Below, piece by piece: positions 19,009-52,096 of a DNA stretch of 64,000 nucleotides. Every line of letters starts with the position of its first letter. The first letter of the stretch is position 1. The translations under genes were made by a program, and so were the position numbers. Source of the stretch: an uncultured Bacilli bacterium (lineage in GTDB: Bacteria > Bacillota_I > Bacilli_A > RF39 > UBA660); the NCBI GenBank assembly GCA_910577505.1, contig CAJTLN010000002.1:114740-178739 (forward strand). The letters run 5' to 3'. The notes beneath the pieces were generated by a model, which saw only the letters and a program-made list of their open reading frames with translations, did no database searches and was not told where the DNA came from.

Positions 19009-19157
19009 ATTAGTTACTCCTTAATATCTAAATTATAACATAATGTTTAAATAAAGTTTACTATGTTGTAATTTGATATTAACGTATAATTAAGTAAATT
19101 TTAAGATTTAGCTTTTATCAAAAGGATAAAAATGATAAAATGATGATGGTGGATATT

Positions 19158-19649
19158 ATGAATAAAAAAATAAAAAATATAATAAAAGAACTTATACCTT
19201 ATGTAGTTATATTACTTGTAGTAGTATTAATTAGAACATATCTAGTAACACCTATAATGGTTAATGGACCTAGTATGCAACCAACTCTTTCTGGTGGAGA
19301 AATAATGATATTAAATAAAAGGGGTAAAATTGATAGATTTGATGTAGTTGTAGTTGATATAAAGTCTGAGGACATAATTAAAAGAGTTATAGCTATGCCT
19401 GGAGAGACTATTTCATGTGAAAATGGTATTGTCTATGTAAATGATAGAAGACAGGATGAAGAATATAGTAAGGGTATTACAACTGATTTTGATAAAGTAA
19501 CTTTAGGTGAAGATGAATATTTTGTTTTGGGAGATAATAGAGAAAATTCTTTAGATAGTAGACGATTTGGGGCATTTAAAGAAGAACAAATAAAAGGAAC
19601 TGCAAAACTTGTATTGTTTCCGTTTAATAAGTTTGGAAATATAGAATAA
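19158..19649 (+). CDS. lepB: signal peptidase I (bacterial P-type, LepB/SipS-like)
   Basis: GPSMQPTL, RVIAMPGETI and GDNRENSLDSR are the SPase I boxes B, D and E. ATG 19158 is preferred (RBS ggtgga). Confidence 0.85.
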   Translation: MNKKIKNIIKELIPYVVILLVVVLIRTYLVTPIMVNGPSMQPTLSGGEIMILNKRGKIDRFDVVVVDIKSEDIIKRVIAMPGETISCENGIVYVNDRRQDEEYSKGITTDFDKVTLGEDEYFVLGDNRENSLDSRRFGAFKEEQIKGTAKLVLFPFNKFGNIE

Positions 19650-40156: not shown

Positions 40157-42439
40157 ATGGAAGATAAAGAATTAGAAAAGACTAAGCCTATTGAAGTTAT
40201 TAATGAAGAAATTGAAAGTCGTAGTGAACGATATAATGAAGATTTTAGCGATGACTTGTCTAGAGAACAAAAGTATAAAGATAAAATAGAAGTTGAAGAA
40301 AGAAAAGTAGAAGAAGAAGCTGCTGAAGAAGCTTTAGCCGAAAAAAATATTGCATTGGCAGAATCATATTTAGCAGAAGAAAGACAAGAAGAAGTTTTAG
40401 AAGAACCAGTTCTACAGAAAAAAATGAACTTGATAGATAAAATAAAAGCTAAATGGGAAGATATGGATAAAAAACAAAGAATAATGTTAATTGTGATTCT
40501 TGTTTTATTATTGATTTTAATATTAATATTTACAATTTTTATAGTTATTAGGTTAAATAAAAAAGATACTTTAGATAAGCCAGAGAAAAAAGTAGAAGAA
40601 AAAGCTCCAGAAATAACTGATAATTTCTATTATAAAGACGGTAAGTTATATTTTTTAGATGCTTCAGAAAAAGAAATAGGAACATATGAATGTGAAAATA
40701 AGGATTCTAAATTATGTTATGTGGCTAATAATAAATATAGGGATGATTTTGATGTTCCAAAATTAGAAGATGAAGATAAAGAAGAAATAGTTAATAGAAT
40801 GTCAATATATGAGGATAATTATGTTTTTGTTGTAGATACAAGTGATGAGAAGAATAAAGATACTAAGTTATACTCTATAAAAGATAATGAAGTTAAGGAT
40901 GCATATTCTGATGTTAAAGCTTATGATGATAATTATGTTATTGTAGCTAATACAGATAAGAAATATGGTTTAATAGAGATAAATGAAGGAATAAAAGAAG
41001 TTATAAAGAATAATTATGAATATTTAGGATTAATAGATGGAGAAGATAACCTAATTGCTAAAAATAAAAAAGGTTACATTGTTATTGATAAAAAGAATAA
41101 AGAATTAAGTTCTATATTTGATTCTAAGTATGAAATTAAATCGTATAATAATAATTTTGTAGTTGCTAAAGTAGGTAACGAATACTTAGCATTTAATTAT
41201 AAAAATGAAGTTATTGCTAGTGGATATAAATATATAACAGTAGCTGATGATTATGTTGTTGCAGCAAATGATGAGAAAAAAGTTTATATTTATGATGGTG
41301 AAAAAAATAAATATAATGAAGGTAATATATCTTTAAATAATGATAATTATGTTAAGACATATATTTATAATGATAAGGGAAGTATTCTAGAAATAAAGAG
41401 AAGCTTTGAAGTAACTGTTAAAGATACTGTAATAGAAATAGCTGTTTATAAAGAGGGAGAAGATAATCCGACTTATAAAAACATTGATATTGTTGAAGGA
41501 TTAGCAAATAAGAAAAATAAATATGTAAATTATTTTGAAAATAAATTGTATATTTATAAAGATTTAGATAAAACACAATTGTTAACAATTTATACTTGTG
41601 ATAATAAGAATTATATAACTAAAGAGTCAGATACTTTTGATTATTGTTTTATTGCTCAAGATGAAATATATGAAGATCACGATATGATGGAACAAGGATA
41701 TAAAGATAGAAAAGCTTTGGTTCCAATAATAAATAATAGATTTATCTTTATCAAAGATGGTAATAATACAGTAAAATTATATAATTTTGTTGAAGATAAA
41801 GTAATGGGAACATATACAAGTGTTAATTCTTATACTAATAATAATGATTATAGTGTTTCATATTTTGATGGTAAGATTGATATTGTAGGTGTAAATAAAA
41901 AAGGTAAATATGGGGTACTTACAATAGATGGTGATAATGTAAGGGCGAAATATACATTTGAATATAATAAGATAGAAAAAATGGAAGATAATTTTATTGC
42001 TCAAGATTCAAATAATAATTGGAAATTATTAAAGAGTGATGGAAATGAGTCCGAAAGTTTTAAAGGTAAAATAATGGGTTATTCTAAAGATATGAAGTAC
42101 TTTAAAATTAAGGTCGGCAATAATTATGTTGTATATAATGATAATAATGAACAAGTTAGTGTAGATATTCATTCTTATGTTGACTTATATAATGGCTATT
42201 ATGTTGGAGTAGACAAAGAAAAAAAATTGTATATATATGATTATCAAGGTGAAAAATTATCTACAGAAGGGATTAAATTAGGAGATTTTCCTTATGTTAA
42301 TACAAATAATCCTGCATATAAGGTAAAGAAGGTTGGCAATGACTTTGTAGTTTCTGTATATGATGGATCAAATTATATTGATTATAGTACAAAAGCAGAT
42401 AAAGTAGAGACTCCAGAAGAAAATTCGGAAGAATCATAA
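40157..42439 (+). CDS. type-II membrane protein: acidic coiled-coil cytoplasmic N-terminus, one TM helix, large extracytoplasmic WG/KWG-like repeat (beta-propeller-type) domain
   Basis: RBS aaaggtagg. TM helix IMLIVILVLLLILILIFTIFIVI. More than 10 degenerate ~35-45-aa repeats of the form (D/N)NYV.V....KKYG(L/V)I..NG..V(I/L), including NNNWKLLKSDGNE. Confidence 0.5.
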   Translation: MEDKELEKTKPIEVINEEIESRSERYNEDFSDDLSREQKYKDKIEVEERKVEEEAAEEALAEKNIALAESYLAEERQEEVLEEPVLQKKMNLIDKIKAKWEDMDKKQRIMLIVILVLLLILILIFTIFIVIRLNKKDTLDKPEKKVEEKAPEITDNFYYKDGKLYFLDASEKEIGTYECENKDSKLCYVANNKYRDDFDVPKLEDEDKEEIVNRMSIYEDNYVFVVDTSDEKNKDTKLYSIKDNEVKDAYSDVKAYDDNYVIVANTDKKYGLIEINEGIKEVIKNNYEYLGLIDGEDNLIAKNKKGYIVIDKKNKELSSIFDSKYEIKSYNNNFVVAKVGNEYLAFNYKNEVIASGYKYITVADDYVVAANDEKKVYIYDGEKNKYNEGNISLNNDNYVKTYIYNDKGSILEIKRSFEVTVKDTVIEIAVYKEGEDNPTYKNIDIVEGLANKKNKYVNYFENKLYIYKDLDKTQLLTIYTCDNKNYITKESDTFDYCFIAQDEIYEDHDMMEQGYKDRKALVPIINNRFIFIKDGNNTVKLYNFVEDKVMGTYTSVNSYTNNNDYSVSYFDGKIDIVGVNKKGKYGVLTIDGDNVRAKYTFEYNKIEKMEDNFIAQDSNNNWKLLKSDGNESESFKGKIMGYSKDMKYFKIKVGNNYVVYNDNNEQVSVDIHSYVDLYNGYYVGVDKEKKLYIYDYQGEKLSTEGIKLGDFPYVNTNNPAYKVKKVGNDFVVSVYDGSNYIDYSTKADKVETPEENSEES

Positions 42440-43269: not shown

Positions 43270-43291
43270 CTACAATTTGGTAGTTATTTTT
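43267..43291. terminator. bidirectional rho-independent terminator between convergent genes
   Basis: aactac-aatttgg-tagtt hairpin with an A6 run upstream and T5 downstream. Confidence 0.55.
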
Positions 43292-44267
43292 CTATGTAAT
43301 AAGCGTAATACTCATCAAATGTTATGTTTTCTTCGTAAATTTGTTTTGCTACATCATAGCCAACATATCTAAAATGCCAGCTTTCTGTATTATATCCTGT
43401 TATATGTTCTTTTCCTTCTGGGTAACGAAGAATAAAACCATATTTGTAACAATTATCTTTTAACCAAGCATATTCTTCAGATTCTTTAAACTCATTGGCT
43501 GTTTTATGCTCTAAAGAAGTGATATCGATTGCAAGTCCAGTTTGATGTTCGGAAAAACCTGGACGAGCAGCGTATGAATCAGCATATTTTAAACTTATTT
43601 TTTTATATTCGTTATATATTTCTTCTTGAGATTTGTAAGGACGATATGATGAGTTAATCATTAATCTTACACCAAGGGCTTCATTAACATCGTTGCGCAT
43701 ATTTTCAAAATTTTCAATAACAATACTAGCTACTTTATTGCCAGCGTAAGAATATTGCAAGCTGACGTTTTGTAAGTCAGTTCTTTCATAATTGCTATCT
43801 AAATAATAAAATTTATTAACTATGACTAAATAGTTATTGTCAATGTTGCTTTTATATGTTTCATTATACCATCCGGCATTGGCATGAACATTTACAAGTG
43901 CTATAACATCTTCATATGTTGTTTTTTCGTGGTATTCTTTGTATTCGACATATTTGTCAAAGTATTTTTCTTTATAGTATTTTTGATTTACTATTTGATA
44001 ATATGATTCATTGTATTTTTTAGTAAGAATTTGATCTAATTTATCTGATGAAAGTTTTTCTATTAGTTTTGTTGTCTCTTTTTTAGAATATCCTTTTTCT
44101 AATATTTTATATTCGTATGTTTCTTTGTACTTGAATTCTTCGACAATTTTAATAGATTCATTTATTGTATAAATGAACATTATTATAAAAAATGTGAAAT
44201 AAATTAGGAATCTTTTGAAGCTTGACTTTAGGCGAAGACGCTTTTTCTTCTTTTTTCTTTTTACCAT
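43284..44267 (-). CDS. D-alanyl-D-alanine carboxypeptidase, VanY / peptidase M15B family, N-terminally membrane-anchored
   Basis: SYRPYKSQEEIY...AARPGFSEHQTGLAIDI...WLKDNCYKYGFILRYPEGKEHITGYNTESWHFRYVG are the VanY/M15B motifs (Zn ligands H..D...H). RBS aaaggatg. Confidence 0.8.
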   Translation of the reverse strand: MVKRKKKKKRLRLKSSFKRFLIYFTFFIIMFIYTINESIKIVEEFKYKETYEYKILEKGYSKKETTKLIEKLSSDKLDQILTKKYNESYYQIVNQKYYKEKYFDKYVEYKEYHEKTTYEDVIALVNVHANAGWYNETYKSNIDNNYLVIVNKFYYLDSNYERTDLQNVSLQYSYAGNKVASIVIENFENMRNDVNEALGVRLMINSSYRPYKSQEEIYNEYKKISLKYADSYAARPGFSEHQTGLAIDITSLEHKTANEFKESEEYAWLKDNCYKYGFILRYPEGKEHITGYNTESWHFRYVGYDVAKQIYEENITFDEYYAYYIEK

Positions 44268-44406: not shown

Positions 44407-44973
44407 ATGAGAAAAGGAAAAAGCATAAAGTTAGCAGTAGTAGTAGCTGTATTAGCAATGTTGGTAGGTTTTGCTGCTGTTTCTACTGTTTTAAGATTTA
44501 ATGGTACTGTTTCATTAAAAGGTAATGCTGCTGAATTTGAAAATAATCTTCGTTTTGTTAGTACTGGTGCTAAAGCACCTACAATTGAGTCAAGTATGAA
44601 TAAAACTGGTAATAAGTCAGTATCTGTATCTGATAATGGAAAGCAATTAACTTTTGTTACACCAGAGTTTAATACAGTAGGTGAAACAGCAACTGTTACT
44701 TATTATGTTGAAAATGTTGGTCAATATGACGCTTTACTTGGGGAAATAACTTGTAAGGCTACTGCTACAAATGCAAATTTAGTTGATTATTTAGAAATAA
44801 TTGAAAGTACTAATTATAATGGAACTACACTTGCTGCTGGTAGTGAAGCAAGTCCTACTCAAACTGAAGAAGCTTCAACTATCACAGTTAAGTTAAAGAA
44901 AACTTACGCTAGTGAAGAAACAGGGATAGTAACAATTACTTGTCAATTACCTGCAACAGCTAAAGAAAATTAG
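44407..44973 (+). CDS. small secreted TasA/camelysin-like (SipW-cognate-type signal) protein
   Basis: Strong RBS gaggagg. MRKGKSIKLAVVVAVLAMLVGFAAVSTVLRFNGTVSL resembles the TasA-family signal/N-region (...LVGGGTWAAFND...). The mature ~150-aa beta-rich domain FVTPEFNTVGETATVTYYVENVGQYDALLGEITCKA is paralogous to the N-regions of 47520, 51539 and 58782. Confidence 0.55.
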   Translation: MRKGKSIKLAVVVAVLAMLVGFAAVSTVLRFNGTVSLKGNAAEFENNLRFVSTGAKAPTIESSMNKTGNKSVSVSDNGKQLTFVTPEFNTVGETATVTYYVENVGQYDALLGEITCKATATNANLVDYLEIIESTNYNGTTLAAGSEASPTQTEEASTITVKLKKTYASEETGIVTITCQLPATAKEN

Positions 44974-45012
44974 AAGTTTAGTAGAAAATAGTTAAAGAGT
45001 GGTGATGAAAGA

Positions 45013-46152
45013 ATGTTAAAAATTGGATTACAGATTGTATTTGAAATTTTATTAGCAATATTACTATTCTTTAACGTTTTTGTACTCAGAACTTTTAATT
45101 TAGTTTGGGTATTTATTGGATTATTAGGATTTTTAATTTTTTTATTATTTTTAATTAAGTATAAGAAACCTAGTAAACAAAGAAGTAAGACATTATATTA
45201 TATAGTAGTTGGTGGATGTTTAATTGTTCAAATATCTTTCTATATATGGGGATTATTTACAGGTTTTTCTACAAGTTATAATGTATTTTATAGAAATTAT
45301 TTATCAAAGATTCATATACTTGGTGTATTCTTTATTGTTTCTATAACTGAAATGATAAGATATCTTATTTTCTTAAATTATAATTATAATAAAAAAGATA
45401 AGAAAAAGTATATAGCAAGATTCATAATGATATTTAATTATGTTCTTATAGATTATATGTTGTTAGGAAAAAGTTGTAATTTTACAAGTAGATATGACTT
45501 AGTTAATACTTTATTGACTTTTGTTATTCCTTCAATTGCTAAAAACTTGTTTTTAGATTATACGAGTCAAAAATATGGTTATATAGTTAATTATTGGTAT
45601 CGATTAATAATGGATTTATACTTATATTTTATTCCTATAGAACCAAATGTAAATATATTTATAAAGACTGTAATATTATCAGTTTTACCATATTTTCTAT
45701 ATGTTATATTGGAAAATGTGTTTGGTAATAAAAAGAGAATAGCTCGTAAAGATAAAAAGAAAAACATAAGTGTTAATATTGTAACTTTAGTAATTCTTGC
45801 AGTATTGGTTTATTTAATATCGTGTCAATTTACTTATTCGATGATAGCTGTCGGAAGCGAATCAATGCAGGGGACTATTAATAAAGGTGATGCTGTAATA
45901 TATAAAGAATATAAGGGTGAAAAATTAAGTGATGGAGAAGTAATTGTATTTCGACAAAATAATAAATTAATAGTTCATCGTATATCTTCTGTATTTGAAT
46001 TAGATAATGGAGATCAAGCCTTTAATACAAAAGGTGATGCTAATGTTAGTGAAGATAATTGGATTGTAACTAAAGAAAATGTAGTTGGCGTTGTAAAATT
46101 AAGAGTTTTACTGATTGCATGGCCATCAGTATTATTAAATGAATGGTTGTAA
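45013..46152 (+). CDS. SipW-like (ER/archaeal Sec11-type) signal peptidase I with ~265-aa N-terminal polytopic membrane extension
   Basis: The C-terminal 110 aa carry, in order, the Sec11/SipW boxes: VGSESMQGT (SGSMEP), KGDAVIY (GD), LIVHRIS (HR, His-type catalytic dyad) and TKGDANVSEDN (GDNN). The N-terminal ~265 aa form 6-7 hydrophobic helices. Confidence 0.7.
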   Translation: MLKIGLQIVFEILLAILLFFNVFVLRTFNLVWVFIGLLGFLIFLLFLIKYKKPSKQRSKTLYYIVVGGCLIVQISFYIWGLFTGFSTSYNVFYRNYLSKIHILGVFFIVSITEMIRYLIFLNYNYNKKDKKKYIARFIMIFNYVLIDYMLLGKSCNFTSRYDLVNTLLTFVIPSIAKNLFLDYTSQKYGYIVNYWYRLIMDLYLYFIPIEPNVNIFIKTVILSVLPYFLYVILENVFGNKKRIARKDKKKNISVNIVTLVILAVLVYLISCQFTYSMIAVGSESMQGTINKGDAVIYKEYKGEKLSDGEVIVFRQNNKLIVHRISSVFELDNGDQAFNTKGDANVSEDNWIVTKENVVGVVKLRVLLIAWPSVLLNEWL

Positions 46153-46166
46153 GTGGAGTGATAAAA

Positions 46167-47492
46167 ATGAATGAAGAAAAAAATAATAGAAATAAGAAAG
46201 AGATTATTTTAGTAGCAGTTGGAGCAGTTGTAATTTTAATGCTTACAATGTTTTTATGTTACAAATCAATAAAAAGTAAAGAAGAGTATGTTATGCATTA
46301 TTCTGATAGTTCAGAACTAGATTATAACGTATATTTAAAAAAGAATGATTTTTATACTACTCCATATTTACCTAAAGATAGAGTATATATTTCAACATTA
46401 ATAGATTATATTGATGCGTCTTTCAATTATAATTTTGATGTGGTCGAAGATATTAATTTAGGATATAAATATTATATAAGTGCGAAAGTTGTTGTTGATA
46501 GTAGTTCTGGAAAAAGAATTTTTGAAAGTGAAGATATGCTTTTAGATAAGACAAGACTACAAAGAGTTAAAGATAAGAAATTCTCAATTAAAGAAAATGT
46601 AAAAATAGATTATAATAAATATAATCAATTAGCTAGTTCATTTATCAACAAATATGAACTTTCAGCTAAAGCCAATGTACTTGTAAGTATGTATGTTGAT
46701 GTAGCTGGTACTTATGAAAAATTTGAAAAGGAATTAAATGATTCAGCTGTAGTTAGTTTTGAGATTCCTTTGACTGCTAATACTACAGAATTAAAAATGA
46801 ATTATGATTTAAAAAATAATGTAAATGAAAAATTTGAATATGGTAAAACAAGGATTATTCATCCATTCTTATTTGCTTTATCTATATTAATAGCAATTAT
46901 AGATATTATATGGTTTATATATGAATTAGTTATATATGTTCAAAATAAAGATGTAAAAGTTAAATATAAAGAAAAATTAAAAAAGATATTTAGAGATTAT
47001 GGTCCTTATATTAGTAAGAAAGCAGCATCTACTAATACTAGAGATATTATGTATACTATGTCGTTAAGAATAGAAGTAGTTAATTCTTTTGATGATTTAA
47101 TTAATGTAAGAGATAGTATTGAAAAACCTATTTTGTTCTATGAAGCAATACCTGGAGAGCAGGCAATATTCTATATTATAGATACTAAAGTTTCTTATAT
47201 TTATATAATGAATGCAAGAGATTGTGGTAAGAAAAAAAATGAAGAAATTGAATATACTCAGGAAGAAGAAAAAGATATAGAATCTATTTCTAATATTGAA
47301 AATTTTGAACAAGAAGTTGAAGAGGTAGTAGAAAATGAAGAAACTACTGAAAAAATAAAAGAAGATATTAAAGAAGAAAAAAAAGAGGAATTATCTACTA
47401 TTGATCAAGAGGAAGTAATAGATAAAGATAAAGAAAAAAAGAAAAAGAAGAAAAAAAAGAGTACTAAAAAGAAAAAAGAAGTAGCTGAATAG
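46167..47492 (+). CDS. bitopic membrane protein with extracytoplasmic domain between two TM helices and K/E-rich cytoplasmic tail (possibly DUF5305-like SipW-locus partner)
   Basis: Overlaps the peptidase gene end (start inside its last codons, RBS agtggagtga). TM1 is IILVAVGAVVILMLTMFLC and TM2 is IIHPFLFALSILIAIIDIIWFIYELVIYV. Ends in EEKKEEL...KEKKKKKKKKSTKKKKE. Confidence 0.5.
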   Translation: MNEEKNNRNKKEIILVAVGAVVILMLTMFLCYKSIKSKEEYVMHYSDSSELDYNVYLKKNDFYTTPYLPKDRVYISTLIDYIDASFNYNFDVVEDINLGYKYYISAKVVVDSSSGKRIFESEDMLLDKTRLQRVKDKKFSIKENVKIDYNKYNQLASSFINKYELSAKANVLVSMYVDVAGTYEKFEKELNDSAVVSFEIPLTANTTELKMNYDLKNNVNEKFEYGKTRIIHPFLFALSILIAIIDIIWFIYELVIYVQNKDVKVKYKEKLKKIFRDYGPYISKKAASTNTRDIMYTMSLRIEVVNSFDDLINVRDSIEKPILFYEAIPGEQAIFYIIDTKVSYIYIMNARDCGKKKNEEIEYTQEEEKDIESISNIENFEQEVEEVVENEETTEKIKEDIKEEKKEELSTIDQEEVIDKDKEKKKKKKKKSTKKKKEVAE

Positions 47493-47519
47493 AACTAGAA
47501 AAACAAGGAGATATGCAGT

Positions 47520-50500
47520 ATGAAGAGAAAAAGTCGTATAAAGATAAATAAACTTAAGCTGGTTATGATAATCCTTGTTTTTTCTATGACTATTGGTTTT
47601 GCAGCTTTAAATACTGAATTAAATTTCTTTGGAGTAAGTACAATAGCTTTTGGTGAAAATGATTTTAGAGTTTATATTAGTAGAGCTTTTATAAATGATG
47701 TTGGTAAATCAAATGTTATAAACGAAAATAAAGATGCTTTTACTTTTACTTATTCTGATATTAATCGTAAGGATGCTGACTTAAAATATACAGTAAAAAA
47801 TACTTCAAATTCATATTATGCAGATGTTGAAGTAAGTTGTAAATCTCGTAAAAATGATGGAACTTCGTTTATTTATAATGAAGAAAATTATGAAAGTCAT
47901 AAGTTTCGTATTGAGCCAGGAAAGTCTTTAACTAAGGATATTAAGTTATTGCTTCCTAATACAAATTTAAATTTAATAAGTGAGAATTCTGATATTTTAT
48001 TGGTAGATCATATAAAAGGTATATCAAAAGGTAGTGATAGTAATATTAATTTTAATACATCAAATGGCACAGGTGTATATGAAAGTACAAGTACAAATTC
48101 TGGTAATAAGGTATATTATTATCGTGGAGCTACTGCTAATAATGATGTTATATTTGCAGATAAATGTTGGAAGATTTTAAGAACTTCTGAAAATGGTGGA
48201 ATAAAGTTAGTTTATAATGGTAATTCAATTGGTGGCACTTGTACGGAATTTTCTTCATCGTTAGGAATTTTATCTGATGAGGAAGTTATACAAATTGATA
48301 GTTCTCAGAATTTTAATAATAATGCATATGCAGGATATATGTATGGTGGTTTAAATTCGTCTGATTATTTGGGAACTCATAGTAATATAAATGATTCTTA
48401 TTTTAAACAAAAATTGGACGATTGGTATGAGAGATTTATTTTAAACACTGAATATGAAAAATATGTAATTGATGATTCTTTTTATAATGATAGAACTATA
48501 TTAAGAGATTATTCTAAAGTTACTAGTACTGATACTTTTGAAGGTTTAGGTTATGGTACTCATACTACTTTGTATGAAAGTGCTGGAAGATCTAGTTCAT
48601 TAGCAAAAACATTGTCACCTACTTATAAAGTTAATAATACAAATGATAGTTTTTCTGTTTCTAGTACTAATGGTAATGGTAAATTAAATTATCCTATAGG
48701 AATGTTGACAGCAGATGAATTAGTATATGCGGGAGTAACTAATGATGCTTCTAATAAGTCATGGTTAGAGGCATATAAAAGATTTATTTTAACAATTTCT
48801 CCTGTTGGATATTATAATAATTCAATGAATTTTAATGCATTAAGTGGTAGAGTTTTAAAGGCTTATCCTTCTGATTTTAAAGACGAAAGTGTTTATGTTT
48901 TACCAGTTTTAACTATAAGTTCAGATTTACATATTGTTAGTGGAGATGGAACGTCATCTAGTCCTTTTGTGTTATCTTCTGAAGATACATACGAGAATAG
49001 TTACACTTGTTCTCTTAATGTTAATAAAGTAGGTTATAGTGAAGATATAGAACCAAGAAATCCTTTACTTGATTTAGAGGTTGGGGAAGAGTATTGTTTT
49101 GATGAAGAATGTTTTTATACGATTAGCAATGACAATAAAGGAACTATAAAAATGATTGCTAAGTATAATTTATATGTTGGAAATAATTATGCTGATTATT
49201 CTAATTCTACAACTATTTCTAAAACAGATGCTTTATATGGAAAACAACATTATACAGCTGTAGGTACGCCAACATCAGGTGCGTATCCTCATATTGCAAC
49301 TGTTCCTTATAGTAAAAATACTACTGATAATACTTATGTTAATAGTGTTGTAAAAAATTATGTTGATGAATATGGGAAATATTTACAAGATCTTACAGGA
49401 ATTAATTTAAAGGCTGAACTTATTACTAGAGATGAATTAGTTGATTTGGGATGTGTTGTTATATCGAAGACAGACGGAAATTGTAATAATCCTAAGTTTG
49501 ATTGGGTAACTAGTACTACTTATTGGACTATGACTCCTGAGAATGGAACAGTTTATTTAGTTGGAAGTGATGGTTATTTTAAGGCTCCAACTACGCAATC
49601 GAACCTGGCAGCAAGTATGTTTAGAGGAGTACGACCTGTAATAACTATTTCTTTACCATCTAAGAATCCAGATGTAACTTTTGTTACAGGTAATGGTGAA
49701 ACACCTGGAGATGAATTATGTATAGGTAATGAATGTTTCTACGTTTTAAAATATGATGAGACTAATTATACTTTGTTTTCTAAATATAATTTATATGTTG
49801 GAAATAAATTTGATACCGGAAGTAGAACAACAATTAGTACGACTGATCCAAGTTATGGCAAGCAGAATTCTTTGGCTCTAGGAGATAAAGGATCACCAAT
49901 ATATGGAACGTTAAATTATGCAGATTCACTTAAAGCAATAAGTAATTATGTAGATTATTTGAATAATACGTATGGTTTGCACGCGACTGGAAGAGGCATT
50001 TCTCTTGAGGAATTGGAAAATCCAATTGGATGTCGAGATTTAACTGGTTCTGGTATTAATCATGGTTGTAGTAAAGAGAAAAATCCGCTTGTTAAATATG
50101 AATGGGTAACTAATACAACTTATTGGACAGGTGCTCTGAGTGGAGATAACGTTTATATAGTAGGAGGAGATGGCTTTTTTAAAGCTGTTGCTAAGACAAA
50201 TACGGATAATCGAGGAGCTCGACCTGTTATTATTGTTCCTGCATCTGAAATAAAAAGTCCTGATTATGTTGTAGATGATAAAAATAAATATCCAGAGTCT
50301 TGGAATGATAATGGTATCTTTTCTGAATATTACGACCAAGCATACGAAAAGTTAAAGACAATGACGACAGAAGAAAAGATTGGTCAGTTGTTGGTTGTTT
50401 CTTATTCTAATGGTAAGCCTAGTGATACTGAAAAAGCCATACAGAGTTACCATGTTGGAGGAGTTTTATTTTTTGCTGATGCTTTTGAAGACAAGAGTGA

Positions 50501-51413
50501 AGCGCAAGTTATATCTATGACATCTAATTTGCAGTCTAAATCTAAAATACCTTTAATGATGCAAGTTGATGAAGAAGGTGGAATTGTAACTCGAGTGGCT
50601 AGAAATACTAATTTAGTTAGTAATGAACTGCAAGCTTATCCAAATTTATTTAAAACATATACAAGAACAATTAGTGGAGTAACGTCTACATTTAATGGAT
50701 TTAAGTCTCCTAGTGATTTATATAATGATAGTGGTCATAATTTTGAACTAGTTAAGCAAGAGACTAAAGTTAAAAATTCAGTTTTAAGAAGACTTGGATT
50801 AAATATAAACCTTGCTCCAGTTTCTGATATAGCTGCTTCATCTTCTTATATTTATCCTAGAACTTTAGGAAAAGATGCATTCACAACTGGCGAATTTGTA
50901 AAGACAGTAGTAGAAACCAGCAAAAATAGTGGAGTTAGTCATTCATTAAAGCACTTTCCTGGTTATGGAAATAATTCAGATACTCATACTTCTTCATCAG
51001 TAGATGAAACTAGTTTGGAAGAATTAAAAAATAAGCACTTAGTACCATTTGTGTCTGGTATAAATGCTGGTGTTGAGTCTGTATTAATATCTCATAATAT
51101 TATTTCAGCTTTAGATAAAGATAATCCAGCTTCATTATCGTATGCAGTTCATTCGTTATTGTTTGATGATTTAGGTTTTACTGGTCTAGCAATAACAGAT
51201 GATTTATCTATGAATGCTAGTAGTGGTATTAGTAATACATATATAAAGGCATATACAGCTGGGAATCATATTTTGCTTACATCTGATAAATATGCTACTG
51301 CATATAGTGAAATATTAGAAGGTGTTCAATCTGGAAATATTTCTCTTTCGGATTTAAATCAAAGAGTTTTTAAAGTATTGGCTTGGAAATATTATGCAGG
51401 AATATTATCATAG
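47520..51413 (+). CDS. 1297-aa secreted multi-module protein: TasA-like signal/N-domain, repeated ~200-aa modules, C-terminal GH3 beta-N-acetylhexosaminidase (NagZ-like) domain
   Basis: RBS aaggagat. N-terminal MKRKSRIKINKLKLVMIILVFSMTIGFAALNTELNFFG resembles that of 44407. Two modules carry ECFY..., KYNLYVGN..., SYGKQ, W.T.TTYWT, G.DG(Y/F)FKA, (V/A)RPVI (approx. 49080-49670 and 49700-50250). The C-terminus (approx. 50330-51413) has KIGQLLVV, QVDEEGGIVTR, KHFPGYG and GFTGLAITDDLSM, which are GH3/NagZ motifs. Confidence 0.7.
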   Translation: MKRKSRIKINKLKLVMIILVFSMTIGFAALNTELNFFGVSTIAFGENDFRVYISRAFINDVGKSNVINENKDAFTFTYSDINRKDADLKYTVKNTSNSYYADVEVSCKSRKNDGTSFIYNEENYESHKFRIEPGKSLTKDIKLLLPNTNLNLISENSDILLVDHIKGISKGSDSNINFNTSNGTGVYESTSTNSGNKVYYYRGATANNDVIFADKCWKILRTSENGGIKLVYNGNSIGGTCTEFSSSLGILSDEEVIQIDSSQNFNNNAYAGYMYGGLNSSDYLGTHSNINDSYFKQKLDDWYERFILNTEYEKYVIDDSFYNDRTILRDYSKVTSTDTFEGLGYGTHTTLYESAGRSSSLAKTLSPTYKVNNTNDSFSVSSTNGNGKLNYPIGMLTADELVYAGVTNDASNKSWLEAYKRFILTISPVGYYNNSMNFNALSGRVLKAYPSDFKDESVYVLPVLTISSDLHIVSGDGTSSSPFVLSSEDTYENSYTCSLNVNKVGYSEDIEPRNPLLDLEVGEEYCFDEECFYTISNDNKGTIKMIAKYNLYVGNNYADYSNSTTISKTDALYGKQHYTAVGTPTSGAYPHIATVPYSKNTTDNTYVNSVVKNYVDEYGKYLQDLTGINLKAELITRDELVDLGCVVISKTDGNCNNPKFDWVTSTTYWTMTPENGTVYLVGSDGYFKAPTTQSNLAASMFRGVRPVITISLPSKNPDVTFVTGNGETPGDELCIGNECFYVLKYDETNYTLFSKYNLYVGNKFDTGSRTTISTTDPSYGKQNSLALGDKGSPIYGTLNYADSLKAISNYVDYLNNTYGLHATGRGISLEELENPIGCRDLTGSGINHGCSKEKNPLVKYEWVTNTTYWTGALSGDNVYIVGGDGFFKAVAKTNTDNRGARPVIIVPASEIKSPDYVVDDKNKYPESWNDNGIFSEYYDQAYEKLKTMTTEEKIGQLLVVSYSNGKPSDTEKAIQSYHVGGVLFFADAFEDKSEAQVISMTSNLQSKSKIPLMMQVDEEGGIVTRVARNTNLVSNELQAYPNLFKTYTRTISGVTSTFNGFKSPSDLYNDSGHNFELVKQETKVKNSVLRRLGLNINLAPVSDIAASSSYIYPRTLGKDAFTTGEFVKTVVETSKNSGVSHSLKHFPGYGNNSDTHTSSSVDETSLEELKNKHLVPFVSGINAGVESVLISHNIISALDKDNPASLSYAVHSLLFDDLGFTGLAITDDLSMNASSGISNTYIKAYTAGNHILLTSDKYATAYSEILEGVQSGNISLSDLNQRVFKVLAWKYYAGILS

Positions 51414-51427
51414 ATAATTAAATTAAT

Positions 51428-51467
51428 CTCAGTAAATGAAAATACTGAGATTTTTTATTAATGTTAT
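51428..51467 (+). terminator. rho-independent terminator
   Basis: atctcagta-aatgaaaa-tactgagat hairpin followed by T6. Confidence 0.65.
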
Positions 51468-51538
51468 AAATAGAGAAAAATTTTACTAAATATGGGAAAA
51501 ATGATATTATAAGGCCGTTATTTTGGGGGGATTCTAAT

Positions 51539-52009
51539 ATGCAAAATATAATATTGTTGATAAAGTATCCGTTTATAACAATTGCAGGTATAGTAGTGTT
51601 TATAGGAGCAATAATAAATGGAACAATAGATATAAATATTTCTTGTAATAAGTTTGATGTTGGATTATCTAATGTTAAAATAGATGGTGAAGCTAAAAAC
51701 GTGTCTATTAATAAACGTAATATTAATTTTGTAACAGGAGATTTAAAAAATGTTGGAGATGTATCTATTTTAGAATATGATTTAACTAATAAGAGCAAAT
51801 TATATAATGCTAATATTTCAATGAAATGCTATAAAGAAGGAAATAAAAGTGATTATTTTAGTGTTGAAGATATAACTCCTCAAATTCTTAAAGCTGGTGA
51901 AACTAAAAAAGGTTATATAAAAGTGAGTCTTTTAAAGGAATCATTAACAGATAGTAATGAAAATTTTTATTGTACAATGGATGTTAAAGCAGAGAAAAAT
52001 AATAAGTAA
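51539..52009 (+). CDS. small TasA-like paralog (N-terminal hydrophobic segment + beta-rich domain)
   Basis: RBS ggggggat. MQNIILLIKYPFITIAGIVVFIGAIINGT, then FVTGDLKNVGDVSILEYDLTNKSKLYNANISMKCYKEG, which is homologous to the FVTPEFNTVGETATVTYYVENVG...ITCKA block of 44407. Confidence 0.5.
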   Translation: MQNIILLIKYPFITIAGIVVFIGAIINGTIDINISCNKFDVGLSNVKIDGEAKNVSINKRNINFVTGDLKNVGDVSILEYDLTNKSKLYNANISMKCYKEGNKSDYFSVEDITPQILKAGETKKGYIKVSLLKESLTDSNENFYCTMDVKAEKNNK

Positions 52010-52053: not shown

Positions 52054-52081
52054 TTAGCAGTTGACCATTGACATCTGCTAA
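52054..52081. promoter_or_regulatory. CIRCE-like operator 1 (imperfect, 10-nt spacer), overlapping the hrcA promoter
   Basis: TTAGCAGTT-gaccattgac-ATCTGCTAA compared with consensus TTAGCACTC-N9-GAGTGCTAA. The 7-bp arms TTAGCAG/CTGCTAA are perfect inverted repeats. Confidence 0.5.
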
Positions 52082-52096
52082 TAAAATGTTTATAAT
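52068..52096 (+). promoter_or_regulatory. consensus sigma-A promoter for the hrcA-grpE-dnaK operon (TTGACA-17-TATAAT)
   Basis: ttgaca at 52068-73 and tataat at 52091-96 with 17-nt spacing. Embedded between/within the two CIRCE elements. Confidence 0.65.

Follow-up and report, generated by a model that had tools for sequence, protein, structure and literature searches.

A candidate AbpX-type surface-filament and display locus with a ten-helix signal peptidase in an uncultured low-GC gut bacterium of the Bacilli

Gene content of the locus

The DNA analysed here is a stretch of 64,000 nucleotides (the window) from an uncultured bacterium of the Bacilli. Positions 44407 to 52009 of this window hold a compact set of genes coding for a ten-helix signal peptidase and a helper protein, which together probably process surface proteins that share one N-terminal tag, a sugar-cleaving enzyme among them. 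An earlier note on this DNA had described five co-oriented open reading frames (ORFs) at this site, and all five are present on the + strand. The first four follow one another with gaps of 39, 14 and 27 nt, and the fifth is set apart from this four-gene operon by a terminator-like hairpin. The genes and the features within them are listed below.

44407..44973, + strand: small subunit gene (188 aa), ORF present
45013..46152, + strand: peptidase gene (379 aa), ORF present
45013..45762, + strand: membrane domain at the N-terminus of the peptidase (residues 1-~250), eight predicted helices, CAAX-protease/CPBP-like predicted fold
45763..46152, + strand: anchor helix (256-271), S26 domain of endoplasmic reticulum (ER)/archaeal type (275-365) and short C-terminal helix (370-378) of the peptidase
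45862-45864, 45976-45978 and 46036-46038, + strand: catalytic codons for Ser284, His322 and Asp342, respectively
46167..47492, + strand: DUF5305-type gene (441 aa; 449 aa from the 46143 start), ORF present
47520..51413, + strand: large cargo gene (1297 aa), ORF present
47535-48095, + strand: N-terminal module of the 1297-aa protein (residues ~6-192), matched by an independent hidden Markov model (HMM) at 62.5 bits
50364-51380, + strand: C-terminal NagZ-like GH3 domain of the 1297-aa protein (residues 949-1287), GH3_N match
51425..51452, + strand: intrinsic-terminator-like hairpin (10-bp stem and T run) that closes the four-gene operon
51539..52009, + strand: small module paralogue gene (156 aa), ORF present

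The signal peptidase and its DUF5305-type partner

By its motifs and profile matches, the catalytic domain of the peptidase is assigned to the ER/archaeal (Sec11/SipW) type, in which Ser-His(-Asp) takes the place of the Ser-Lys dyad. The enzyme matches the ER/archaeal-type model TIGR02228 at 76.3 bits (cutoff 51.85) over residues 248-363, and its closest solved relatives by sequence are human SEC11C (E 4.5e-10) and SEC11A, with which the catalytic regions align. These results bear out the class proposed in the earlier note, which had named membership of the bacterial LepB type (P-type) beforehand as the finding that would speak against it. With TIGR02227, the model of that type, the peptidase reaches 33.2 bits, below the cutoff of 47, and the lepB gene of the window (19140-19649) reaches 131.8 bits, in agreement with its previous description as a bacterial-type enzyme. 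The score against the Bacillus SipW equivalog NF046067 is 43.7 bits, below the cutoff of 190. The four boxes of the ER/archaeal enzymes are found in the order that had been described, as VGSESMQG (Ser284), KGD, VHR (His322) and KGDAN (Asp342); the last of them reads GDAN and not GDNN. Ser284, His322 and Asp342 are invariant among 18 homologues, down to 29% identity.

Ahead of the catalytic domain lies a 250-residue membrane domain, which is conserved at full length in more than 200 proteins of ~380 aa. In the AlphaFold2 (AF2) model of the peptidase (pLDDT 78.6), eight N-terminal helices are followed by an anchor helix, a beta-rich catalytic domain and a C-terminal helix. The model thus has ten helices in total, and the hydropathy profile concurs. 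As modelled, the N-terminal domain resembles the eight-helix CAAX-protease fold of SpdC and Rce1, SpdC being the best structural match of this predicted fold. Profiles of the domain found no CPBP match (PF02517) in searches of Pfam and PDB sequences; because a sequence-level match is lacking there, we use the term CAAX-like strictly for the predicted fold. Judged by its residues, the domain is catalytically degenerate: the CAAX motifs EExxxR, FxxxH and HxxxN/D are not preserved, and the homologue alignments contain no conserved or invariant His in residues 1-250. Only E113-x-x-R116 on helix 4 is kept, and E113 is the sole invariant residue across 36 sequences, the one from an archaeon included. 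The peptidase protein was also found, residue for residue identical, on contigs of GCA_964018015.1 and in several assemblies of public sequencing runs.

The next gene codes for a 441-aa protein with a predicted layout of a first transmembrane (TM) segment (13-31), an extracellular domain, a second TM segment (234-252), a cytoplasmic domain and an E/K-rich tail. It had been described as a bitopic protein whose gene overlaps the peptidase stop. Neither point stands, because the protein has two TM segments and because its gene, started at 46167, does not reach the stop; only the longer ORF from 46143 overlaps it. The 441-aa protein itself has no Pfam match, even at E<=10. The product of positions 11156-12253 in L010, one of the related loci considered below, shares 43% identity with it over 349 aa (E 2e-92), and this syntenic counterpart matches DUF5305 (PF17231) at 53.5 bits (cutoff 29). 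By transitive homology, we therefore place the 441-aa protein in DUF5305 as a putative member. Its end (47230-47492) is a Glu/Lys-rich low-complexity tail with a lysine run, and strain variants of the protein are 441 or 445 aa long.

A family of proteins with a common N-terminus and its genomic setting

The 188-aa product of the first gene has a Sec-type signal ending in V-G-F-A|A, which is followed by an amphipathic N-terminal strand (AVSTVLRFNGTVSL) and, in the remainder, by an acidic beta-sandwich with two conserved cysteines (C116 and C179). The mature product is predicted to have 165 aa, a pI of 4.7 and the N-terminus A-V-S-T-V-L. Upstream of the gene lies a strong Shine-Dalgarno sequence (AGGAGGAG), the strongest ribosome-binding site of the operon. 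The AF2 model of the subunit (pLDDT 83.5) is a beta-sandwich whose core is similar to that of solved TasA-superfamily members. When this model was submitted to Foldseek, self-complemented FimA was retrieved with a probability of up to 1.0 and a TM-score of only 0.3-0.4.

A profile search over 1.84 billion cluster representatives (E<=0.001) yielded 1170 relatives. In 146 of 153 family members, a basic stretch and a hydrophobic helix lead into [VI]-G-F-A-[AST]-[VI]-[ST]-T-T-L-x-I-N-G-T, a likeness that we judge to be far beyond chance. The G at -3 and the A at -1 are near-invariant, and these are the small residues that a type I peptidase requires. The segment after G-F-A shows alternating hydrophobic residues and a near-invariant Gly. 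The family is acidic (median pI 4.43), with exactly two Cys in 120 of 145 mature small members. Among the 150 best representatives, about 60% are 165-240 aa long, and about 40% are proteins of 280-1406 aa that carry the module at their very N-terminal end. The passenger domains of 57 such large members include Flg_new (13), ALK_LTK_GRD (7), DUF285 (5) and LRR_5, a leucine-rich repeat (LRR) of BspA type (3), and also DUF6273; as a set, they can be described as typical adhesin-like surface-protein repeats.

Three proteins of the window belong to this family. An HMM of the module, built without any window sequence, scored 175 bits with the 188-aa protein, 84.8 bits with the 156-aa protein (E 2.5e-26, aligned from residue 24 on only) and 62.5 bits with residues 6-192 of the 1297-aa protein (E 1.6e-19). 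On these scores, we regard the three proteins as paralogues with a common beta-sandwich module. The GFAA-type N-termini previously seen in the flanking products are real in the 188-aa and the 1297-aa proteins, the latter with the cognate signal I-G-F-A|A-L-N-T-E-L-N-F-F-G. The 156-aa protein had also been counted rightly as a small paralogue, and lacks the motif: its hydrophobic N-terminus comes without the G-F-A cleavage site and without the TTLxI strand. Motif-less counterparts are present in L012, L036, L020, L026, L031 and L033. The 156-aa protein is a candidate for an uncleaved membrane anchor, a cap or a terminator subunit.

The proposed kinship of these products with the TasA/camelysin family was not borne out. 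None of the three window proteins matches Pfam Peptidase_M73 at E<=0.1, and this family is not among the 25 most frequent of the 80 families matched at E<=1 by 41 orthologues. The model of the SipW-cognate signal, TIGR04088, which the earlier note had suggested as a check, gave no NCBIfam match with any substrate at E<=0.1, a result to be read with the caveat that short models can drop out in HMMER filters. Two other readings of the N-termini were rejected. A type IV pilin with its prepilin peptidase does not fit, because the peptidase belongs to S26 and not to A24 and because the hydrophobic segment stands before the conserved motif and not after a G|F site. A lipoprotein does not fit either, as there is no lipobox Cys.

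In the 1297-aa protein, the module is joined to a C-terminal GH3 enzyme. GH3_N (PF00933) is matched at 176.4 bits, and the domain signatures KHFPGYG..DTH and TDDLSM are found in the sequence. The nearest solved relatives of the domain are all beta-N-acetylglucosaminidases (6k5j, M. tuberculosis LpqI and B. subtilis YbbD/NagZ). We call the protein NagZ-like and not NagZ, because it scores 119 with the NagZ equivalog model, for which the cutoff is 207. The ~750-aa middle region (48090-50340) has no family match. It is common to other GH3 fusions and to non-GH3 proteins in L059, L091 and L021. Two segments of this region (residues 489-552 and 720-759 of the 1297-aa protein) both align with one and the same portion of the family profile.

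Related loci were collected by scanning one genome per species for relatives of the peptidase. Of the 130 stretches obtained, the best 80 were retained (numbered here with the prefix L). The small module gene ends just upstream of the peptidase gene in 73 of these 80 loci; of the seven others, three are truncated where the contig stops, and in another three the module gene follows that for DUF5305. A DUF5305-like gene lies directly downstream of the peptidase gene in 78 of the 80. The chromosomal position varies between lineages, and therefore the cassette moves as a unit. In 12 loci, the cognate signal and module are fused to GH3 (L012, L013, L014, L020, L026, L031 and L033, and the clostridial or more distant L050, L064, L074, L086 and L059). 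The earlier view that the peptidase is dedicated to co-encoded proteins with a common cognate N-terminus is taken as supported, and so is the view that its cargo set is unlike that of B. subtilis.

All 80 loci come from uncultured metagenome-assembled genomes (MAGs), and many of the record titles cite gut, faecal or rumen material. The carriers, RF39-like Bacilli included, are known only as such MAGs from human, mouse and ruminant guts. They are labelled as Bacilli, Firmicutes CAG:582, Mollicutes/Tenericutes, Candidatus Coprovivens, Erysipelotrichaceae, Clostridia, Eubacteriales, Oscillospiraceae and a few Muribaculaceae; the closest species-level relatives are labelled uncultured Bacilli. The label "uncultured Muribaculaceae" is attached to L015, L020, L026, L030 and L038, with all other carriers labelled as Bacillota, and it is probably an error of binning or labelling.

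Individual loci show further variation. L017 and L075 have two peptidase-DUF5305 pairs each, and hence a duplicated processing pair. In the clostridial loci L055-L090, the DUF5305-like proteins range from 345 to 1033 aa, many of them with large extra domains. In L008 (12346-21149), the DUF5305 gene is followed by five successive large ORFs (359, 721, 680, 503 and at least 427 aa, with Flg_new and DUF285), all of which start with the cognate signal G(I/L)GYA(S/T)(V/I); immediately upstream of the small subunit, this locus has a gene for a phage-type integrase. In L011, ~13.5 kb is repeated, with genes for an LtaS-like protein, CmpB, an HD protein and ValRS present twice, which may be an assembly artefact or a duplication.

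The window as a whole has a G+C content of 25%, a strong positive GC skew and nearly all of its genes on the + strand. The locus had been placed as an insertion into a lepA-hemW-hrcA cluster. All three of these genes are present, but they are not contiguous: four genes separate lepA from hemW, and hemW is in turn ~5 kb away from the locus, with other genes in between. This last stretch codes for a 760-aa membrane protein, a 253-aa protein and, on the - strand, a VanY/LdcB-like carboxypeptidase. The 760-aa protein (40157-42439) is predicted to cross the membrane once and has a big repeat-rich ectodomain and an N-terminal region that is acidic; it has no Pfam family, and L013 carries a 56%-identical orthologue near the same locus. 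The carboxypeptidase gene (43284-44267, - strand) adjoins the locus here and has counterparts in L012 (72% identity) and L013 (85%), and it is absent from more distant loci. Downstream, a perfect sigma-70 consensus (52068-52096; TTGACA, 17 nt, TATAAT) lies 25 nt upstream of hrcA, and is the sole 12/12 match in the 8 kb scanned. Taken as a whole, the promoter scan performed no better than it did on shuffled sequence and was not used. Rfam and tRNA scans of the window gave no matches.

Interpretation and comparison with known systems

On balance, we lean toward reading the locus as one of the AbpX type (TasA superfamily), with which an uncultured low-GC gut bacterium of the Bacilli would build surface filaments and display proteins. 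AbpX loci were described in a January 2026 preprint that unites TasA and AbpX in one superfamily (10.64898/2026.01.04.697558), and the earlier suggestion of an undescribed structure is therefore not fully supported. These loci occur in archaea and Bacillota, and comprise a dedicated ten-TM type I signal peptidase, a DUF5305 accessory protein, AbpX-like minor subunits and variable tip proteins (10.64898/2026.01.04.697558). The abpX locus of Pyrodictium abyssi was used for direct comparison. A search for AbpX homologues gave only five Pyrodictium-like proteins, and hence the AbpX profile is shallow. In hhalign, our peptidase family and the 380-aa signal peptidase encoded beside abpX in P. abyssi align at 98.4% (E 6.1e-15) over 273 columns (query 68-369), and this alignment takes in the membrane domain and its E-x-x-R motif. 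For the 41 subunits with their signal peptides, the value against AbpX is 90% (E 1.7e-6), and AbpX (9sj2) is among the only 5 weak PDB matches of the family HMM (E 0.78). The regions of cleavage and donor strand align as YA|QWSETLSLSAT in AbpX and FA|AVSTVLRFNGT in the window, and clostridial relatives have intermediate donor-strand sequences (GYA|QLTDTL and GYA|ALTDTL). On the strength of the peptidase match, the DUF5305 protein and the weak subunit match, the locus is therefore filed as one that works like AbpX and shares its peptidase and accessory machinery. In addition, a small stand-alone subunit that comes first with the strongest ribosome-binding site, as in the 73 loci mentioned above, is the pattern of a major polymerising subunit.

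Several observations weigh against this reading. When the subunits are aligned to AbpX in their mature form, the hhalign value drops to 26% (P 7e-4, where the reversed control gives P 0.088), and a shallow profile of 9 sequences built on the 188-aa protein gave neither a PDB sequence match nor a significant hhalign result with AbpX. The donor strand of AbpX has, at position 2, an aromatic residue and, at position 4, an acidic one, which are calcium ligands (10.64898/2026.01.04.697558). These hallmarks are absent from the window subunit, which has Val and Thr at these positions, as well as from the family consensus A-V-[ST]-T-T-L. We regard the subunit as a divergent clade that, by its residues, misses one defining feature of AbpX. 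Unlike bacterial AbpX loci, the window operon has no SLH or LPXTG anchor. Moreover, the large, multi-domain proteins that make up about 40% of the listed family members suit a display tag as well as a fibre, and polymerisation in this bacterium is presumed from sequence and from analogy with solved systems.

If the AbpX-type reading is correct, the tagged proteins, with their basic n-region, hydrophobic helix and [VI]-G-F-A tag, would be exported by Sec. The co-encoded peptidase, assisted by the DUF5305 accessory protein, would then cut after G-F-A, and, by analogy with SpbR and SpdC, the conserved signal helix may be caught in the plane of the membrane by the CAAX-like domain. By donor-strand complementation, the freed amphipathic N-terminal strand would complete the beta-sandwich of the module next to it. 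In the subunit order that we infer, the abundant 188-aa protein would polymerise and the 1297-aa protein would enter the polymer through its module, so that the NagZ-like beta-N-acetylglucosaminidase would be displayed outside the cell. The 156-aa paralogue would be able to accept a strand and unable to donate one, and may serve as a membrane-resident anchor or as a cap.

More tentatively, we propose as a possibility that the locus is a sortase-independent, non-covalent sorting and display machine, widespread in uncultured Bacilli and Clostridia of the gut. The CAAX-like domain would recognise the conserved signal helix that an entire regulon of surface proteins has in common and gate their cleavage, as a natural fusion of the SpbR-SpsB type, and the freed strand would dock, by donor-strand complementation, on the membrane-anchored 156-aa acceptor or on the 188-aa polymer. 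If this is true, the machine would keep adhesins and a NagZ-like glycosidase attached to the cell surface.

The rival that survives best, doubtful as we find it, dispenses with a long fibre altogether. Here the module would be a docking tag for sortase-independent surface display, and each cargo (a GH3 enzyme, or Flg_new, DUF285 or LRR adhesins) would, once cleaved, dock its N-terminal strand non-covalently into a membrane-anchored, strand-less acceptor like the 156-aa protein, or else into short oligomers that the 188-aa protein forms. The share of large proteins with an N-terminal module among the 150 best representatives, the adhesin-like passengers of the 57 large members, the five successive large proteins with a cognate signal in L008 and the recurrence in seven loci of motif-less paralogues with a hydrophobic N-terminus all agree with such a scheme. 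Against it stand the leading position and strong ribosome-binding site of the small stand-alone subunit, and the fact that the solved relatives (AbpX, AbpA, 0406, Tafi and TasA) are all filament-forming.

A cell-wall turnover complex like SagB-SpdC, in which the CAAX-like domain scaffolds a membrane-tethered GH3 enzyme next to the VanY/LdcB neighbour and the small modules are accessory, is improbable. The notion draws on SpdC, a glucosaminidase scaffold, as the best structural match of the N-terminal domain, on the peptidoglycan-recycling enzymes YbbD/NagZ and LpqI among the solved relatives of the GH3 domain, on the GH3 fusion in 12 loci and on the VanY-like gene that adjoins the locus in the window, L012 and L013. 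However, about 68 of the 80 loci have no GH3 within 8 kb and yet keep the order subunit-peptidase-DUF5305, and the archaeal AbpX locus of P. abyssi has the same peptidase and no glycosidase. The linkage to VanY is confined to close relatives, and the intact catalytic residues of the peptidase imply cleavage, not mere scaffolding.

It is very improbable that the N-termini in common stay uncleaved as signal anchors, that the surface proteins bearing them are unrelated, and that the peptidase serves other substrates, so that the linkage of the genes would carry no functional meaning. The hydrophobic segment could indeed act as a TM anchor, but G-x-A at -3/-1 is near-invariant at its end (146 of 153 members), the genes are very tightly linked to that of the peptidase in Bacilli, in Clostridia and in an archaeon, and the three window proteins are demonstrably paralogous. 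Finally, we give almost no credence to a direct orthologue of the B. subtilis SipW-TasA-TapA operon, in the strict sense proposed by the earlier note: the peptidase is of ER/archaeal type like SipW and TasA belongs to the AbpX superfamily (10.64898/2026.01.04.697558), but the SipW equivalog score lies far below its cutoff, ten predicted helices stand against the two TM helices of the SipW type, neither Peptidase_M73 nor TIGR04088 is matched, and a DUF5305 gene is found instead of TapA.

In the literature searched, we found no account of the fused CAAX-like domain, the recurrent GH3 cargo, a paralogue that lacks the strand, a tagged family of this size or a subunit without the calcium residues of AbpX. 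By the tag G-F-A|A-V-S-T-T-L-x-I-N-G-T, more than 1000 protein clusters can be recognised as likely substrates of a single dedicated peptidase, which would allow the surface proteome to be predicted genome-wide. The fusion of a CAAX-like scaffold to a signal peptidase bears on the origin of SpbR-SpsB regulation and on the role of the ten-helix AbpX peptidases. Furthermore, the recurrent GH3 N-acetylglucosaminidase cargo suggests that TasA-superfamily fibres can be scaffolds for enzyme display, beyond their part in the biofilm matrix.

Among known systems, the AbpX loci come closest. Like the window, they encode a subunit with a mature, acidic, two-Cys beta-sandwich of ~165 aa, a ten-helix type I signal peptidase of ~380 aa, a DUF5305 protein, a paralogue that resembles the subunit and is minor, and a tip or cargo protein of large size. 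They differ in that the hosts of the window type are uncultured Bacilli and Clostridia known from gut MAGs, that the cargo here is a GH3 enzyme or adhesin repeats, and that the window operon has no c-di-GMP or kinase genes. The SipW-TasA-TapA system of B. subtilis likewise encodes a dedicated ER/archaeal-type Ser-His signal peptidase together with a secreted fibre subunit, and TasA fibres are reported to assemble by donor-strand exchange (PMC9674648). However, enzymes of the SipW type have two TM helices (10.64898/2026.01.04.697558) and no CAAX-like domain, and the window has a DUF5305 protein where B. subtilis has TapA.

In the Tafi system of haloarchaea, which is archaeal only, the peptidase TafD has four predicted TM helices and another architecture, the pilins TafA/TafE are mostly Tat-exported, and TafG is a DUF5305 protein (PMC11821415, PMC12337348). 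Deletion of tafD abolishes pilin processing and fibres (PMC11821415). The N-terminal domain of our peptidase recalls two degenerate CAAX-protease homologues of S. aureus: SpbR, which binds and regulates the signal peptidase SpsB and inhibits cleavage (PMC12260438), and SpdC, which scaffolds the TM-anchored glucosaminidase SagB (bioRxiv 10.1101/2020.05.21.109470). The eight-helix CAAX-protease fold with degenerate motifs is common to these proteins and the window. Unlike in S. aureus, the CAAX-like fold and the peptidase form one polypeptide in the window. Moreover, SpsB is of the bacterial P-type and the window peptidase of the Sec11 type, and similarity between the CAAX-like domains was not found at the sequence level. 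By analogy, we propose that the CAAX-like domain of the window enzyme acts in activation or substrate capture, unlike SpbR, which inhibits cleavage. Lastly, the modelled subunit resembles self-complemented FimA of chaperone-usher pili, and hydrophobic residues alternate along its N-terminal strand, where a Gly is conserved. These pili differ from the window, where no chaperone or usher is encoded, no sequence relationship to them is seen and the host lineage is labelled Bacilli.

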